A DNA stretch of 10,462 nt, taken from the NCBI GenBank assembly GCA_037387125.1, contig JARRLL010000012.1, positions 63,369 to 73,830 on the forward strand, given 5' to 3'. Shown piece after piece: positions 1,576 through 9,760 of this stretch. Source of the stretch: Gammaproteobacteria bacterium. GTDB taxonomy: Bacteria > Pseudomonadota > Gammaproteobacteria > Steroidobacterales > GCA-2729495. A program made the position numbers and the translations under genes. The notes under the pieces are model-generated. The model had not been told where the DNA came from. It saw only the letters and a program-made list of their open reading frames with translations, and did no database searches. The stretch's first letter is position 1. Every line of letters begins with the position of its first letter.

Positions 1576-1636
1576 TTCACGGGTGGATTCGAACCACGGG
1601 CTTACGCCCTTCCCATTGGATCAACTTAGCAGGTTG
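1576..1636 (-). pseudogene. tRNA-like remnant (T-arm GGTTCGAATCC consensus plus short hairpins, no recognisable anticodon arm)
   Basis: The reverse complement reads AAGTTGATCCAATGGGAAGGGCGTAAGCCCGTGGTTCGAATCCACCCGTGAATGACGG. It has a canonical T-loop but no D or anticodon arm that I can fold, and it is followed by a 7-bp hairpin (CGAATGAcggtTCATTCG). Confidence 0.3.
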
Positions 1637-1709
1637 ATGGAAACGCAGGAGTCGAACCTGCGACCGACAGATTCATGGTCTGTTGCTCTACCCTCTGAGC
1701 TAGATTCCA
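1637..1709 (-). tRNA. noncanonical tRNA; anticodon loop CCAUGAA (C33; formal anticodon AUG, possibly Met/Ile-like CAU shifted); no encoded CCA (trailer U-CAA)
   Basis: rc = TGGAATC TA GCTC AGAGGGTA GAGC A ACAGA CCATGAA TCTGT CGGTC GCAGG TTCGACT CCTGC GTTTCCA T. The acceptor pairs 6/7, and the D, anticodon and T stems are perfect. Position 33 is C and position 34 is A. Confidence 0.5.
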
Positions 1710-1925
1710 GTGGAGTTGGGTTTTACGAGCCGCTCGACACACACCGTGCGATGGATAGCGTTGGTGCGCCGGCCGGGTATACAGAACCCGCACCGCTGAA
1801 CGTCGTTCTGGCCCCAACCTTGGTTGACAATGCCGGGCATCAGGCACCGGCGTTGCCGTCCAGCCACGCTGACACGTTGCTGGTAAAACGGGACTCTGGA
1901 TGTCTGTCACGGACTACTCGATAAC

Positions 1926-2001
1926 TGGCGCGGCCCGAGGGATTCGAACCCCCATCTGCGACGTACGCACTGTCGTGCTCTTCCACTTAAGCTAGAACCG
2001 C
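1926..2001 (-). tRNA. tRNA, anticodon loop GUGCGUA -> GCG (Arg-like), CCA encoded; 31-39 A.C mismatch, U37
   Basis: rc = GCGGTTC TA GCTT AAGTGGAA GAGC A CGACA GTGCGTA CGTCG CAGAT GGGGG TTCGAAT CCCTC GGGCCGC G CCA. The acceptor has two G-U pairs. Confidence 0.5.
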
Positions 2002-2008
2002 ATAAAAC

Positions 2009-2084
2009 TGGCGCGACCCGAGGGATTTGAACCCCCATCTTCTGCCCTACCACGGCCTTGCTCTGCCAGTTGAGCTAGAGTCGC
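2009..2084 (-). tRNA. tRNA, anticodon loop GUGGUAG -> GGU (Thr-like), CCA encoded; anticodon stem only 3 WC pairs plus tandem A.G/G.A
   Basis: rc = GCGACTC TA GCTC AACTGGCA GAGC A AGGCC GTGGTAG GGCAG AAGAT GGGGG TTCAAAT CCCTC GGGTCGC G CCA. The T-arm and acceptor are nearly identical to the neighbouring tRNA at 1926-2001, suggesting tandem duplication with a diverged anticodon region. Confidence 0.5.
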
Positions 2085-2089
2085 ATTGA

Positions 2090-2160
2090 CAACCCGGGAC
2101 GGATTCGAACCGTCGTCTTCACTTCTGGAAGGTGACGTTCTGCCACTGAACTACCGGGAT
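2090..2160 (-). tRNA. tRNA-Trp (anticodon CCA); no encoded 3' CCA (trailer G-UCAA)
   Basis: rc = ATCCCGG TA GTTC AGTGGCA GAAC G TCACC TTCCAGA AGTGA AGAC GACGG TTCGAAT CCGTC CCGGGTT G. The D and T stems are perfect. The anticodon loop has U33 and CCA. There is a 31-39 C.A mismatch and a 2-71 U.U mismatch. Confidence 0.65.
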
Positions 2161-2177
2161 TCTGTTTCAAGAAATCG

Positions 2178-2261
2178 CATCCCGGGACGGAGTCGAACCG
2201 TGGTCTGCGCGTTCGGAAGTTACTGTTCGCAAGCACTATTCTGCCATTGAACTTTCGGAAC
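2178..2261 (-). pseudogene. 84-nt tRNA-like element related to the adjacent tRNA-Trp (same D-arm and T-arm/acceptor) with a disrupted or expanded anticodon region; pseudogene or unusual class-II-length tRNA
   Basis: rc = GTTCCGA AA GTTC AATGGCA GAAT A GTGCTTGCGAACAGTAAC TTCCGAA CGCGCAGAC CACGG TTCGACT CCGTC CCGGGAT G. The 5' acceptor strand does not pair with the 3' strand. It retains a TTCCGAA motif resembling the Trp anticodon loop TTCCAGA. I could not fold a canonical anticodon arm. Confidence 0.35.
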
Positions 2262-2319
2262 ATGGAAACAGGTAACGCCTGCGGCGTTCGTTACTTGCGT
2301 GTTTAAGTACACGCAAATT

Positions 2320-2394
2320 TGGTGGACCGTGAAGGACTTGAACCTTCATCTCGCCGGGTAAGAGCCGGGTGCTCTGCCATTAAGCTAACGATCC
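2320..2394 (-). tRNA. tRNA-Lys (anticodon CUU), CCA encoded
   Basis: rc = GGATCGT TA GCTT AATGGCA GAGC A CCCGG CTCTTAC CCGGG CGAGAT GAAGG TTCAAGT CCTTC ACGGTCC A CCA. All stems are canonical and U33 and A37 are present. Confidence 0.8.
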
Positions 2395-2400
2395 GTAATA

Positions 2401-2480
2401 TGGTTGAGGTAAACGACGAGAGTCGAACTCGTATCATCCGGGGTCACCTCCCGGGGTCTTGCCGTTAGACCACGTTTACC
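2401..2480 (-). tRNA. tRNA-His (anticodon GUG) with G-1:C73; anticodon loop AGGUGAC has G33; 3' end reads C73-UCAACCA
   Basis: rc = G GTAAACG TG GTCT AACGGCA AGAC C CCGGG AGGTGAC CCCGG ATGAT ACGAG TTCGACT CTCGT CGTTTAC C TCAACCA. The 8-bp acceptor with the extra 5' G is the His identity element. Four extra nucleotides (UCAA) lie between C73 and the CCA. Confidence 0.7.
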
Positions 2481-2482
2481 AT

Positions 2483-2558
2483 TGGTGCCTTGCATGAGAC
2501 TCGAACTCACATCTGTGGAGTGGCGCTCCACTGCTCTACCGCTTTGAACTAACAAGGC
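2483..2558 (-). tRNA. tRNA-Gly-like (anticodon GCC) with C33 instead of U33, CCA encoded
   Basis: rc = GCCTTGT TA GTTC AAAGCGGTA GAGC A GTGGA GCGCCAC TCCAC AGAT GTGAG TTCGAGT CTCAT GCAAGGC A CCA. Confidence 0.6.
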
Positions 2559-2575
2559 ATGTACATCAACGATTA

Positions 2576-2649
2576 TCAGGGCGGCTGGATTCGAACCAGC
2601 GGCTTCACGGATCCGGGCCGCGCGCTCTGCCAGACTGAGCTACACCCTG
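2576..2649 (-). tRNA. tRNA-Pro-like (anticodon CGG) with C33, no encoded CCA
   Basis: rc = CAGGGTG TA GCTC AGTCTGGCA GAGC G CGCGG CCCGGAT CCGTG AAGCC GCTGG TTCGAAT CCAGC CGCCCTG A. The D and T stems are perfect, and the anticodon stem has one G-U pair. Confidence 0.6.
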
Positions 2650-2657
2650 TTTGAATA

Positions 2658-2723
2658 TGGAGGTAATCGGAATCGAACCGATCTGCTCTGGCATGCAAAA
2701 CCGCTGCTTTCCCAGAAACCCCC
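2658..2723 (-). pseudogene. truncated tRNA-like element: acceptor stem plus perfect T-arm (ATCGG TTCGATT CCGAT) but no D-arm and no canonical anticodon arm; no CCA
   Basis: rc = GGGGGTT TC TGGGAAAGCAGCGGTTTTGCATGCCAGAGCAG ATCGG TTCGATT CCGAT TACCTCC A. Only a TCTGG/CCAGA 5-bp stem enclosing 20 nt could be drawn in the middle. Confidence 0.4.
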
Positions 2724-2725
2724 GT

Positions 2726-3005
2726 AAAGAATACGCGCCGCTATCGCGGCTTCTTAATTTGCGAGTACAAATACTCGCTTTCTGCCTCCGGCGGTGCTCT
2801 GCACGCCTTCACTCGCTAGCGCGCGTGAAGAGTTCCGAGCATGAGTGCCGCTATCGCGGCGTCTCAATTTGCGAGTAGAAATACTCGCAACTCTGCGCTT
2901 CACTTGGTGCTCTGCGCGCCTGCAATCGCTAATGCGATCGCAGAGCTCCGAGCATGTGAAACGCCTGCGGCGTTCATTATTTGCGAGTACAAATACTCGC
3001 AAATT
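2726..3005 (-). repeat. 2.5 tandem ~115-bp units, each ending in a small hairpin (GCCGC-TAT-CGCGGC or AACGCC-TGC-GGCGTT) plus a 22-26-bp perfect palindrome ATTTGCGAGTA-NAAA-TACTCGCAAAT
   Basis: Unit boundaries are marked by GAG(T/C)TCCGAGCATG at 2831-2844 and 2944-2957. The palindromes are at 2757-2778, 2866-2890 and 2979-3004, with a degenerate copy at 2295-2316 directly 3' of tRNA-Lys and another at about 6577-6603. The units contain GCAGAGCAC-type D-arm-like remnants, so they may be decayed tRNA genes that kept their 3' hairpin module. Confidence 0.6.
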
Positions 3006-3125
3006 TGGCTCCGGTCGCAGGGCTCGAACCTGCATCTGACCGATTAACAATCGGGAACTCTGAGATATCGAAACTTCGCCTCCTGGTCTTCAACCAGGCG
3101 CTCTGCCGTCTGAGCTACCGATACA
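3006..3125 (-). pseudogene. chimeric tRNA locus: 5' half of a tRNA-Phe (GAA) joined by a 26-nt linker to the 3' two-thirds of a tRNA-Asn (GUU) ending in CCA
   Basis: rc = GTATCGG TA GCTC AGACGGCA GAGC G CCTGG TTGAAGA CCAGG | AGGCGAAGTTTCGATATCTCAGAGTT | CCCGA TTGTTAA TCGGT CAGAT GCAGG TTCGAGC CCTGC GACCGGA G CCA. The 5' Phe acceptor (GTATCGG) is not complementary to the 3' acceptor (GACCGGA). Confidence 0.45.
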
Positions 3126-3276
3126 TTGGGCGGCGTTAACCACCAGCCCAGCGGGCAGCGCGTCGTCGCAAACGCACCTTGGCCTTGGCCTGCACGCCGG
3201 AACGCGCTGCCCGCATCGAGTAATCCGCATTGTTAAAGAACGCAAAAACAGTTCGCTACAACGCGTTCGACCGGGC

Positions 3277-3530: not shown

Positions 3531-3797
3531 TTTTGCACATATATTCATAAGGGCGCGGACTTTACTCCTCTACTTTTAAGTAGTCAAAGAAATATTTGTT
3601 ATAAGAACGTTCAGGCAAACAATAAAAACGGGCGAGAAAAAAACAGGAATCAAACTGTGCGCTTTCACCTGCGCTGATCGTCGATCACCTATCGGATCGC
3701 GACGGGTCCGCGAGAAGGCCAGAAAGTCTTCACCCTGCAAACGCTGCCGGTCAGCACCAGCTGGCCGGTGGGTGATTAGACGTTTGCTATCCGCACC

Positions 3798-3943
3798 CAA
3801 TGCGGCGGCCGGCTGCGCGTCATCGCCAGCATCGAATCGCCGGCGGTCATCGAGCGGATTCTCAAGCACCTTGGCCGGGAGGCCGTGCCGGTCGATCCTG
3901 CGCATCCGAGCCGGGCACCGCCCCGGTCAGATCGGCTGATCTG
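3798..3943 (+). pseudogene. C-terminal remnant (~48 codons) of an IS91-family transposase gene
   Basis: The frame opens just after an in-frame stop at the left edge of the repeat and ends at TGA 3941-3943. There is no upstream coding continuation. Confidence 0.45.
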
Positions 3944-4188
3944 ATTCTCTCGCCGATGCCCACGCCGCCCGGCCCCCGCGCCGGGAGGTGCGTGTGTTGA
4001 CCGGCGGCTTTGCCGGTTGGCATTTCCGGGTGAAAGGGGAAGATTCACGGACCCAACGACGTCGCCCGGGTGAGGCTCCGCCTGCATCGCGGCGTTCAAC
4101 CTGCCATCAACACCCCGATTGCAACATGCCTCTACCAATTCGAGTGAATCGGCTGCTCAAACATAGGTGGCTTATACTTCCTATTCGC
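3798..4188 (+). mobile_element. copy 1 of a ~390-bp IS91/ISCR-like 3'-end (oriIS-side) remnant: transposase C-terminal tail plus conserved non-coding region ending AACATAGGTGGCTTATACTTCCTATTCGC
   Basis: About 90% identical to 6819-7187, with a 26-bp insertion at about 4046-4071. The frame reads CGGRLRVIASIESPAVIERILKHLGREAVPVDPAHPSRAPPRSDRLI*, a C-terminal motif I recall from IS91-family HUH-Y2 transposases. The terminus (A)AACTTCCTAT(T)C matches the oriIS consensus of IS91/IS801/IS1294/ISCR as I remember it. Confidence 0.55.
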
Positions 4189-4212
4189 GATAGTCACAAT
4201 GCAGGTCTTGAT

Positions 4213-4256: not shown

Positions 4257-5123
4257 TCACTGATTGCGGAAGGCTTCGATCGAGAAGATGACACTGCCGC
4301 TATCGATTTGGAAAAATATGGAATCCCGTTCTTGCGGTTTTTCGTCAATATAGATTAGCCCGCCGTATGCGCCGCCCAAGCTCGGGCCACAGTTTTCCGA
4401 GCTGAGTTCGACGCTCATATTGTAAAGATTCCTGTCGGAGCTACCCTCGATGTCGCTTATAGAGCCGGTCCACGTGCAGGCGCTGCCAGTTGAATCGAGT
4501 AAGTCGCCATTAAACGTGCCATCCGGGTTAAAGGTCAGAGTCACGCCTTGACCTGGAACCTGGCTATTCCAGATTCCAGAGAAGTCTTCTATTGCAGTGT
4601 TTCTATCGTAAAGCGGGTTGAAAAGTGTTTCGAACACGATTATATCCGGCTCCTGGTCGGCATCGTCTCCATCGTCGCATACGAACGAGCCTTGCAGTGC
4701 CGACTTTTCATCAAACTTTCCTTCCTCCGTTCGTTTATCAAAAGTGCCATCAACAGCGCAGTTGCTGGTAACTATGTCATCACCGATAGAAAAATCTTGC
4801 GAAGTGAAACGCGTGACGTCACCTGAAAGCTCAAGCCCTAAAACATCTGTGGAAGCTCCGCCCGACGCCTGAACTGAGTACTGCAGAGTAAAGACTCGCA
4901 TTTCCCCGGTATCTCCGATAATCGGTTCGGTCGTCAGAATGATGACGTTCTGATCTGTAGCGGAGTTGCCATCGGTCAGCGTGCCGTCCCAGATTCCACC
5001 CAATTGTATATCTGTCGGTGGTTGGTCTTTGCCAGGGCCATCGAAACCGCTATCACTGCCACCGCCGCAGGAGGCTAATGCGGCCGCAACTGCGGCAGAC
5101 AGCGCTGTATTTCTCTTAATCAT
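4257..5123 (-). CDS. hypothetical lipoprotein (signal peptide with lipobox LASC)
   Basis: The N-terminus MIKRNTALSAAVAAALASCGGG is a classic SPII lipobox. The mature part is rich in D/G/S/T. GC content is clearly lower than in the flanking DNA. No family is recognised. Confidence 0.7.
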   Translation of the reverse strand: MIKRNTALSAAVAAALASCGGGSDSGFDGPGKDQPPTDIQLGGIWDGTLTDGNSATDQNVIILTTEPIIGDTGEMRVFTLQYSVQASGGASTDVLGLELSGDVTRFTSQDFSIGDDIVTSNCAVDGTFDKRTEEGKFDEKSALQGSFVCDDGDDADQEPDIIVFETLFNPLYDRNTAIEDFSGIWNSQVPGQGVTLTFNPDGTFNGDLLDSTGSACTWTGSISDIEGSSDRNLYNMSVELSSENCGPSLGGAYGGLIYIDEKPQERDSIFFQIDSGSVIFSIEAFRNQ

Positions 5124-6557: not shown

Positions 6558-6748
6558 TGCGGTTCTGGGTGGCGGAATTTGCGAGTATTCGGATACACTA
6601 TTAAGGCGCCGCACAGCAACGCAAGACCAGCGGAAGGATTGACTCAATCGCTGCCGCTAAACGCGTGTGTCGCTTCGTGAACCTCCTGACTTACTCGGAT
6701 CGACCGACAGGTTCGAACCAAGACCTCCTAGAGTTCGACAAATAAAAA

Positions 6749-6776
6749 GGGCCAGCCTAAATCGGCTGACCCTGTT
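6749..6776 (+). other. hairpin (GGGCCAGCC-taaatc-GGCTGACCC) preceded by AAATAAAAA and followed by TGTT; possible weak terminator for the hydrolase gene
   Basis: Inverted repeat with one mismatch, lying 190 bp after the hydrolase stop. Confidence 0.3.
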
Positions 6777-6818
6777 AGTCGCATGACTGGTTTGCGCGAC
6801 CCTTAGACTCGCGAGCCG

Positions 6819-6966
6819 CCAATGCGGCGGCCGGCTGCGCGTCATCGCCAGCATCGAATCGCCGGCGGTCATTGAGCGGATTCTCAAGCACCTTGGCGGA
6901 GAGGCCGTGCCGGTCGATCCTGCGCATCCGAGCCGGGCACCGCCCCGGTCAGATCGGCTGATCTGA
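6819..6966 (+). pseudogene. C-terminal remnant of an IS91-family transposase gene (copy 2)
   Basis: Same frame as copy 1, with stop TGA at 6964-6966. The frame opens after a TGA within 40 nt upstream. Confidence 0.45.
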
Positions 6967-7187
6967 CTCCCTCGCCGATGCCCGCACCGCCCGGCCCCCG
7001 CGCCGGGACGGGCGCGTGTTGCCCGCCGGCTTTGCCTGTTGGCATTTCCGGGTGAAAGGGGAAGATTCACGGGCCGCCACCTGCATCGCGGCGTTCAACC
7101 TGCCATCAACACCCCGATTGCAACACGCCTCTACCGGTTCGATCGAGTCCGCTGCTCAAACAAAGGCAGCTTAAACTTCCTATTCGC
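6819..7187 (+). mobile_element. copy 2 of the IS91/ISCR-like 3'-end remnant (transposase tail ...CGGRLRVIASIESPAVIERILKHLGGEAVPVDPAHPSRAPPRSDRLI*, oriIS-like end AAACAAAGGCAGCTTAAACTTCCTATTCGC)
   Basis: See copy 1. It sits in the convergent gap between the hydrolase gene (plus) and the outer-membrane protein gene (minus). Confidence 0.55.
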
Positions 7188-7299
7188 CCCGGGTCAGACG
7201 GTTCAAGCCCTCTGCCGGTCACCCTGTAACAACGGGCCCTAATGGCGAGAACCTGGCTCGGACCGTGCATGCCTTCGGCTAGCCCGCTTCCGCCCCCGG

Positions 7300-9532: not shown

Positions 9533-9737
9533 CCCGCACCGCTCTGGTGCCGCTTAAGGCCGCCGGGACGGGCGCGTGTTGACCGGCGGCTTTCCCGGTT
9601 GGCATTTCCGGGTGAAACGGGAAGGTTCACGGGCATCGCAGCGTTCAACCTGCCATCAAAACCCCGATTTTAACACGCCTCTACCGGTTCGATCGAGTCC
9701 GCTGCTCAAACAAAGGCAGCTTAAACTTCCTATTCGC
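9533..9737 (+). mobile_element. copy 3 (5'-truncated, ~205 bp) of the IS91/ISCR-like element: non-coding part plus oriIS-like end only
   Basis: Aligns to copy 2 from CCCGCACCGC onward and ends ...GCAGCTTAAACTTCCTATTCGC. It begins 10 nt upstream of the secreted-protein start codon (9523) and ends 24 nt before the ZnuA-like stop (9761). Confidence 0.5.
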
Positions 9738-9760
9738 CGCCTAGGCCGGTTGCAGCAGGA

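Follow-up and report, generated by a model that had tools for sequence, protein, structure and literature searches.

Spacers between and behind tRNA genes can give rise to functional RNAs, as exemplified by the 3' external transcribed spacer of Escherichia coli glyW-cysT-leuZ, which acts as a sponge for small RNAs (sRNAs), and by two stable RNAs in the tRNA cluster of phage T4. A tandem form of such DNA is found in the E. coli tyrT-tyrV region (NC_000913), where three 178-bp repeats of 95% identity lie behind tyrV, the last of them overlapping the tRNA 3' end, and where the sRNA rttR and the open reading frame (ORF) tpr are annotated inside the repeats. The element addressed here is a hairpin-rich repeated cassette in the tRNA gene array of a Gammaproteobacteria bacterium (contig JARRLL010000012.1, positions 63,369 to 73,830), a stretch of 10,462 nucleotides that is termed the window. 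Every tRNA gene of the array, which spans 1580-3124 of the window, is on the minus strand, and a slipin gene occupies 17-1168. The cassette is real and well delimited, with a defined anatomy, substitutions that preserve its structure and no counterpart in relatives, and it is ordinary in kind: a tandemly amplified, hairpin-rich tRNA trailer. With moderate confidence, it is read as a lineage-specific, tyrT-like amplified trailer that would act as structured RNA punctuation.

The palindrome TTGCGAGTA-N4-TACTCGCAA, designated P, has four copies on the tRNA-sense (minus) strand compared with 0.01 expected by chance; none of 200 shuffles gave four matches (shuffle mean 0.01). The pattern TTGCGAGTAnnnnTACTCGCAA matches at 2295, 2759, 2869 and 2981 with 3, 2, 0 and 0 mismatches, respectively. 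Two further hairpins, H2 and H3, accompany P within two inserted blocks, and the components are as follows.

2979-3004, minus strand: P1, a perfect 26-bp palindrome with 11-bp arms and a 4-nt centre (-13.8 kcal/mol, z = -6.8)
2869-2890, minus strand: P2, with 9-bp arms and 0 mismatches, opening tandem unit 2 (-11.8 kcal/mol)
2761-2778, minus strand: P3, a core with 7-bp arms, opening a partial third unit (-9.8 kcal/mol)
2293-2318, minus strand: P4, the variant ACUUGCGUGU / ACACGCAAAU after the CCA of tRNA-Lys (-12.9 kcal/mol, z = -5.5)
2960-2974, minus strand: H2 type a, a GC hairpin reading AACGCC-GCA-GGCGTT in the sense direction, repeat D14 (-8.1 kcal/mol)
2274-2288, minus strand: H2 type a, the copy past tRNA-Lys, repeat D14
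2847-2860, minus strand: H2 type b, GCCGC-GAUA-GCGGC, repeat D11 (-10.7 kcal/mol)
2737-2750, minus strand: H2 type b, third copy, repeat D11, separated by 20 nt from the Ala-like tRNA remnant that follows
2908-2954, minus strand: H3 of unit 1, bipartite, with outer helix UGCUC/GAGCA and a 13-pair inner helix (-28.8 kcal/mol, z = -4.7)
2795-2841, minus strand: H3 of unit 2, of the same architecture (-23.7 kcal/mol, z = -2.2)
2725-3005, minus strand: insert 1, 281 nt that hold the 2.5 units and separate tRNA-Asn from the Ala-like tRNA, without counterpart in relatives
2219-2319, minus strand: insert 2, comprising P4, H2 and ~55 nt resembling a tRNA 5' half, past tRNA-Lys, without counterpart in relatives

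P1 and P4 start 1 nt past the CCA of tRNA-Asn (3006) and tRNA-Lys (2320), where the CCA is followed directly by AATTTGCG, and the small GC hairpin AACGCCTGCGGCGTT stands after each of them, at 2960-2974 and 2274-2288, respectively. An earlier note on this DNA, made by reading the letters alone, had described this pairing of palindrome and hairpin behind the two tRNAs, and the count of four copies bears it out. Its description of the palindrome as perfect applies to P1; P4 forms 10 pairs, among them one sense-strand G.U, and shows a compensatory change from A-U to U-A, while the 2 mismatches of P3 are both in the outer arm. The trailers of the two tRNAs are closely related, with 2274-2322 being 86% identical to 2960-3008 over 49 nt at a distance of ~686 bp. 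The apparent 686-bp higher-order periodicity is an artefact, as similarity at that offset is limited to the tRNA 3' part and the trailer. In the array of L001, the spacer past tRNA-Ile also opens with CCAAATTTGTGTATT (truncated AAATTTGTGTATT) before it is cut off by tRNA-Asn.

Past tRNA-Asn three palindromes stand in tandem with starts 110 and 112 bp apart, and the repeat families are spaced 110 and 113 bp, so that the period of ~115 bp given earlier is replaced by a measured 110-112 bp. Tandem Repeats Finder did not call an array of these units. The same arrangement, including the 2.5 units, is present in three independent assemblies from other samples and therefore is not an assembly artefact. 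Read in the sense direction, a unit comprises P, H2, CAUGCUCGGARCUC, H3, and GCAGAGCACC with ~15 nt more. The P stem is 7-11 bp long with a UUUG or UUUC loop and AU-rich flanks, and H2 is a GC stem of 5-6 bp. H3, a third hairpin domain of ~47 nt in each full unit, was missing from the earlier description, which had the second hairpin recurring unchanged in the tandem units. That hairpin does follow P1 and P4, but the H2 of the two downstream units has the different sequence GCCGCGATAGCGGC, which retains the 5' arm of type a and shifts the pairing register. The folding check that the earlier note had proposed came out in favour of structure: compared with shuffles, the predicted energies are -9.8 to -13.8 kcal/mol for P (z -4.1 to -6.8), -7.4 to -10.7 kcal/mol for H2 (z -2.1 to -4.3), and -23.7 and -28.8 kcal/mol for H3 (z -2.2 and -4.7). 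The units are ~75-80% alike, a rough estimate from the alignments. Beyond H2, the sequence of the tRNA-Lys trailer shows no significant similarity to the units (p = 0.07 and 0.30).

The differences between the copies preserve the hairpins. H3 of unit 1 and H3 of unit 2 differ at 13 positions, yet 17 of the 18 pairs are kept and 97% of cells are paired; three pairs have changed on both sides (G-C/A-U, G-C/U-A and A-U/C-G), one G.U pair has become A-U, and one pair is broken. When 13 differences are placed at random, the probability of at least three compensated pairs is 0.004 and that of at most one broken pair is 0.002. H2 types a and b pair in different registers on one 5' arm. The G.U pairs in P4 and H3 fall on the tRNA-sense strand, and in 12 of 14 segments the fold is slightly more stable in the sense than in the antisense direction. 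It is concluded, with modest statistics, that the property maintained is probably the formation of hairpins on the tRNA-sense strand. Of the functions suggested earlier for the module, RNA structure or processing is thus the one that the sequence favours, since all three hairpins appear to be kept by compensatory or register-shifting changes with G.U pairs on the sense strand.

Comparison with related arrays delimits the cassette. Arrays of four relatives (L103, L104, L105 and L100) were found through slipin homologues of 67-69% identity, and they are homologous in the leader, the tRNA order (Phe, Asn, Ala-like, ..., Pro, His, Lys, ...) and slipin. Alignments to L103, L104 and L105 break at 3005/3006, at the CCA of tRNA-Asn, and restart at 2724/2723, at the Ala-like tRNA; a second break at ~2317-2320, at the CCA of tRNA-Lys, is followed by a restart at 2218. 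Neither the 281-nt nor the ~100-nt insert has any similarity to the homologous arrays of the four relatives. Between the Asn CCA and the Ala-like tRNA, the relatives have nothing or 5-11 nt (5-11 nt in L103, L104 and L105), and in L103 the Lys CCA is followed by 1 nt and then tRNA-Gly. Because the alignments to relatives skip the inserts, the cassette is, on this comparison, a lineage-specific insertion or amplification, and no ancestral tRNA genes were lost there.

The proposed course of events begins with a ~110-nt unit that would have been put directly past the CCA of tRNA-Asn and tRNA-Lys, and that past tRNA-Asn would have been amplified to 2.5 head-to-tail copies. The cassette would be transcribed within the polycistronic precursor and work as RNA on the tRNA-sense strand, its hairpins separating the tRNA domains. 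The single-stranded, AU-rich junctions CCAA/AUUU and GCAA/AUU may be offered for cleavage by RNase E, an enzyme that prefers the consensus RN/WUU (the slash marks the cleavage site). Motifs of this form occur where the CCA meets P and, for P2 and P3, on the 3' side. The hairpins could then shield the released ends from 3' exonucleases, and a stable spacer RNA of ~110 nt may result as a by-product, like RttR in E. coli.

The likeness to tyrT-tyrV is one of organization. In both cases head-to-tail repeats, about three in number, begin at a tRNA 3' end on the tRNA-sense strand, and the repeated DNA is trailer rather than tRNA; here P1 lies 1 nt past the Asn CCA and the units follow at 112 and 110 bp. 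The E. coli trailer yields a stable processed RNA. A remnant of the tRNA-Asn 3' end may survive where unit 2 ends, much as 19 nt of tRNA-Tyr are retained in the tyrT units. In contrast, there is no sequence similarity between the two, the units here are 110-112 nt long and ~75-80% alike as opposed to 95% in E. coli, they consist of three hairpins that show compensatory changes, no recognisable tRNA 3' end and CCA stands at the start of unit 2 or unit 3, and the window has a second, non-tandem copy past tRNA-Lys. With the glyW-cysT-leuZ spacer and the T4 RNAs the cassette shares the placement of structured RNA between or behind the tRNAs of one precursor, from which release by tRNA-processing nucleases would follow. 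Those RNAs have a measured abundance or function, and the cassette has no sequence or Rfam similarity to them.

Several points weigh against an amplified trailer kept as structured RNA. Tandem duplication alone leaves two things unexplained, namely the near-identical Asn and Lys trailers with the same CCA junction and the truncated AAATTTGTGTATT behind tRNA-Ile in L001. The relatives do without the cassette, and any function it has is therefore dispensable and not essential to the array. The statistics are modest, with just two full units and four copies of P; the shuffle control of the pair-counting tool is weak, and 57 of 500 shuffles equal the observed H3 values. The energy gap between sense and antisense is small (0.3-1.7 kcal/mol per hairpin). 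Hairpin-templated DNA repair can be an alternative source of palindrome changes that keep the structure. Finally, the outer pairs of P2 and P3 are eroded, which suggests decay.

The main rival, though somewhat unlikely, is that P-H2(-H3) constitutes a small non-autonomous mobile palindromic element, related in kind to repetitive extragenic palindromes (REPs), miniature inverted-repeat transposable elements (MITEs) or PATEs, which inserts just past the CCA or beside itself. Such an element is the best account of one trailer and one junction behind different tRNAs, the CCA being followed by AATTTG(C/T)G past three of them (Asn, Lys and, truncated, Ile). The inserts are missing from the arrays of the four relatives and have sharp CCA boundaries; a 14-nt partial copy lies 3' of an unrelated gene; the post-Lys-CCA site of L105 holds an unrelated 340-nt insert, so that these spacers do accept insertions; and a gene for an IS91-type transposase (IS, insertion sequence) is ~3.5 kb from the array. 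However, the inserts are without target-site duplications or terminal inverted repeats at their boundaries, and a MITE or transposon insert was rejected as a class on the same grounds, given that the boundaries at 3005 and 2725 and at 2319 and 2219 show neither a duplicated flank nor a terminal inverted repeat. No RAYT or IS200/IS605 transposase was seen. Within ~17 kb of the source contig, the full copies of the palindrome are the four in the array, and the only other trace is the following fragment.

6577-6590, plus strand: partial copy of the palindrome, matching exactly over 14 nt (AATTTGCGAGTATT, E = 0.056), 20 nt past the stop codon of the hydrolase gene

This fragment folds no better than shuffles (z = +0.39), and the statement that the module is dispersed elsewhere, for which it had served as the degenerate copy, is accordingly weak.

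Searches beyond the contig also failed to recover an exact-palindrome copy related to the cassette. In the contigs of 185,579 genomes there were 5 matches, at chance level and none near a tRNA; JGI metagenome contigs gave 72, nearly all in one AT-rich marine coding sequence and the remaining few being unrelated isolated palindromes; and viral contigs gave 3, of which the one inspected lies in a contig already among the marine metagenome matches. These scans demand an exact match of both 9-nt arms, so that diverged copies such as the Lys type would escape them, and the source samples are evidently outside the metagenome collection scanned. A megablast search with the entire window found no match among phages and plasmids, and distant blastn of 2161-3005 against the same sets found matches in tRNA genes only, never in units or trailers. 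The resemblance to REPs and bacterial interspersed mosaic elements (BIMEs) lies in short, stable intergenic palindromes at gene 3' ends, which are often clustered and stabilise the upstream RNA against 3' exonucleases. REPs differ in having tens to hundreds of dispersed copies, as compared with four at one locus and a 14-nt fragment in the ~17 kb read, and in carrying a GTAG head that is recognised by a RAYT transposase. Here no GTAG head is present (the 5' flank is AAAUUU or variable, and GTAG/GTAC occurs only inside the stem), and the contig contains no RAYT-like gene. That the 110-nt unit is a new element tied to the tRNA CCA end, either a functional spacer RNA of a stress-inducible array or a CCA-targeting mobile palindromic cassette, is considered unlikely.

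The proposal that the units are ghosts of deleted tRNA genes, tandemly duplicated with their trailer and with the tRNA part decayed or collapsed into H3, is quite improbable. It is true that a tRNA with a 45-nt trailer would be about as long as a unit (110-112 nt), that both units contain the D-arm 10-mer GCAGAGCACC in a form identical to tRNA-Lys, and that unit 1 shows gapped similarity to tRNA-Lys over the first 27 nt of the latter and to tRNA-Phe over positions 12-42 (z ~2.9-3.0). The array also holds two decayed tRNAs.

2650-2716, minus strand: pseudoA, a degenerate Ala-like tRNA that lacks a CCA and has a G3:U70 acceptor; its orthologue in L103, L104 and L105 is GGGGGTG...CCTCCACCA
2161-2265, minus strand: pseudoB, a degenerate tRNA with a 3' half that is a diverged copy of the tRNA-Trp next to it (repeat D15; z = 13.6; 13 bits)

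Nevertheless, the Rfam tRNA model RF00005 has no match in 2725-3005 at E <= 10, and ARAGORN finds no tRNA there. What the units share with tRNAs is one conserved motif, the 10-mer with weak gapped extensions (z ~3), which is not significant after 22 comparisons involving the 11 array tRNAs. The relatives have no tRNA gene at these positions, and the compensatory substitutions of H3 show selection on a hairpin rather than neutral decay. Nor do the units represent the simple duplication of a gene plus trailer that had been named as the outcome contrary to the ghost proposal. The stretch of 13 nt that precedes P3 (CCGGAGGCAGAAA) agrees with the Asn 3' end and trailer start (CCGGAGCCAAATT) at 9 of 13 positions, and the match before P2 is poor. 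Like the E. coli tyrT repeats, the units may include short remnants of tRNA ends; judging from these comparisons, they are not decayed whole tRNA genes.

It is very improbable that the cassette is a weak intrinsic terminator or insulator, in which H2 and the T-rich arm of P would stop plus-strand transcription, P and H2 together would damp read-through in the sense direction, and the array would be split into expression blocks. A consensus scan flags H2 on the plus strand at 2737-2750, followed by TTCTTAATTT, and at 2960-2974, followed by CATTATTT, as well as one H2 on the minus strand (2750-2737), and all sequence directly past P-H2 is degenerate (unit 1, unit 2, pseudoA and pseudoB). The scan, though, gave 4 sites compared with 2.4 expected in shuffles, and the stems are just 5-6 bp. 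Under a definition of a GC stem-loop followed by at least 5 U in 8 nt, the copies of P were never flagged; their sense-strand tails are AUAAUGAA, AUUGAGAC, AUUAAGAA and GUAACGAA. P has no U-tract in the sense direction, which argues against the canonical terminator considered in the earlier note, and because a boxA-like antitermination motif also precedes the array, internal termination is unlikely. Intact tRNA genes for Pro, Gly, His, Lys, Trp, Thr and Arg lie downstream, and read-through is therefore needed; moreover, no plus-strand gene faces the array. The further suggestion that P is a DNA operator or centromere-like site for a dimeric protein is highly improbable despite its perfect dyad symmetry, 9-11-bp half-sites and three copies reiterated 110 and 112 bp apart, since the variant copy alters both half-sites complementarily (as expected from hairpin selection and not from independent half-site drift), H2 and H3, whose structure is likewise maintained, would be without a role, there is no promoter-like site in or beside the units and no adjacent regulator or partition gene, and the spacings are not whole helical turns.

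Other classes were rejected. The H2 type a sequence reads AAUGAAC...GUUUCAC, which fits neither RYYYAAC nor GTTRRRY of an integron attC site, and the contig has no integrase. A P stem of just 7-11 bp does not suit an RNase III substrate. At a permissive threshold, no Rfam family fits the units; a 5S rRNA match (17 bits, E = 0.49) and a YrlA match (25 bits against a 69-bit threshold) are due to chance or driven by the T-arm.

The tRNA gene that precedes insert 1 on the sense strand requires a separate comment.

3006-3124, minus strand: the chimera, a tRNA-Phe 5' part and a tRNA-Asn 3' part joined by a 120-bp deletion at 3062/3063

The Phe/Asn join that had been described as a chimera is present in the window, but the underlying 120-bp deletion is unique to it: the missing 120 bp are present in full in three sibling contigs, and a fourth contig ends within them. 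The deletion, whose junction shows no microhomology, takes the tRNA-Phe 3' end, the whole of tRNA-Ile and the tRNA-Asn 5' end, all three of which are intact in L001. Several non-canonical tRNA-like genes were missed by ARAGORN, located at 2650-2716 (minus strand) in the window and at 4280-4348 and 4844-4913 in L103. The Ala-like gene, with G3:U70 and a UGC anticodon loop, is intact with a CCA in L103 and degenerate in the window, and the Met-like gene of L103 has a perfect 7-bp acceptor stem followed by ACCA. At 1636-1709 on the minus strand, a tRNA called as His (ATG) has an unusual anticodon loop, CCAUGAA; the orthologous gene of L103 (5597-5670), called as Arg (GCG), shares the body of this tRNA and differs in the anticodon arm.

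The window is 99.9% identical to the JGI metagenome contig 3300056866 Ga0568847_0000105 (28,963 bp), and the slipin (Band_7) protein next to the array is 100% identical to NCBI MEJ2138825.1 (MAG: Gammaproteobacteria bacterium). Beyond slipin the contig carries smpB, an acyl-CoA dehydrogenase gene, a transfer-messenger RNA (tmRNA) gene and the IS91-type transposase gene, and from these neighbours the array sits in a variable region beside ssrA. L001 has 11 recognised tRNA genes in ~1.6 kb and 3-4 degenerate ones; the arrays directly upstream of slipin in the relatives have 18 (L103, plus 2 non-canonical), 16 (L105), 12 (L104) and 5 (L100). The array directly upstream of slipin (SPFH/Band_7) is a conserved pair, and the genes on the other side vary, with an RNA ligase gene, RtcB, adjoining the array in L100. 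The L-array is defined (PMC4758250) by at least 20 tRNA genes at a density of at least 2 per kb; the present array reaches the density and, with 11 recognised genes, falls short of the count. It resembles accessory tRNA arrays (PMC4758250, PMC8421152) in its supernumerary tRNA genes, odd anticodons, pseudogenes and variable neighbourhood beside ssrA and an IS91 transposase gene. The text of PMC8421152 makes no mention of hairpins or palindromes in the spacers. It describes an Anabaena tRNA array that is induced by translational stress, with control assigned to promoter repeats, and calls the regulation of tRNA genes largely unknown.

Structured spacers are also found in the relatives. At the post-Lys-CCA site, L105 has an unrelated 340-nt insert (2886-3225) with a 32-codon hydrophobic ORF (MNIMTKLVHNIAIYLFGMAVGVAFVAALRVIV) and a strong GC-rich hairpin of 13-14 bp. 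In L104 (4510-4615) and L105 (2385-2475), two hairpins past the Ala-like tRNA show base changes that keep the pairing, and these are unrelated in sequence to the window cassette. The array spacers, therefore, repeatedly take structured inserts. A non-tRNA spacer of ~200 nt (window 1710-1925, minus strand; L103 5385-5596) is kept in L103, L104 and L105 at 72-76% identity, and contains GTTCAGCGG...ACGCTATCCATCGCACGGTGTGT. No Rfam family matches this spacer, which may represent a structured RNA that has escaped recognition. Elsewhere in the window, an intergenic repeat of 180-390 bp has three copies of 88-95% identity between minus-strand genes (3797-4189, 6819-7188 and 9561-9738), without an Rfam match. 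Two of these copies are overlapped by a called 109-aa gene (3576-3905) and an uncalled 137-aa ORF (6657-7070), both of which may be spurious.

The leader of the array extends over ~3590-3125 of the minus strand and comprises a promoter (3587-3559), an ORF (3548-3369), the arms A (3370-3362), A' (3352-3344) and A'' (3334-3324), and an intrinsic terminator (3314-3284). Its counterparts are at L103 3490-3946, L104 3760-4206, L105 1500-1966 and L100 8510-8995. The five loci share the promoter TTGACx-17-TAnnGT with a GC-rich discriminator, and an ATG lies ~8-10 nt past the -10 element. The ORF has 54-66 codons of poorly conserved sequence, and its in-frame stop is an invariant TAG with which arm A (TAGCCTTYCG) begins. 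Downstream, in order, are arm A' (CGGAAGGCU), arm A'' (AGCCUUCCGAC), the terminator and a boxA-like motif. RNAfold calculations on the nascent RNA give A:A' together with an antiterminator, in which CCGACCAGGG pairs with CCCCGGUUGG, at four of the five loci (not L100), whereas the full leader, or a leader with arm A masked, gives A':A'' and the terminator. A single A'' substitution in L100 is matched by compensating changes in each of the two helices that A'' can form, a covariation that supports the alternative pairings. The boxA-like motif TCTTTAACA, which resembles the antitermination boxA of rRNA operons (E. coli rrn boxA, UGCUCUUUAACAA), stands between the leader terminator and the first tRNA, and all five arrays have kept it (window 3239-3231, minus strand; L103 3850-3858; L104 4094-4102; L105 1862-1870; L100 8866-8874); it is followed by ATGCGGATTAC in the window and three relatives and by GTTTGGATGAC in L100. 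From these predicted folds, the leader looks like a trp-type ribosome-mediated attenuator, in which efficient translation would shut the array off and stalling would open it. A leader of this type, switching on upon a stall, would fit the induction of the Anabaena array by translational stress.

Taken alone, the cassette is of small weight, being one more case of tRNA-operon trailers or spacers that are amplified and kept as structured RNA, like E. coli tyrT. The spacers of accessory tRNA arrays do take up lineage-specific inserts, and the apparent tRNA ghosts and the tRNA chimera illustrate how such loci can mislead annotation. More deserving of follow-up is the conserved module of promoter, leader ORF, alternative hairpins, terminator, boxA-like motif, array and slipin. 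If the leader is indeed a ribosome-sensing attenuator, it would provide a concrete mechanism by which accessory tRNA arrays are switched on under translational stress.

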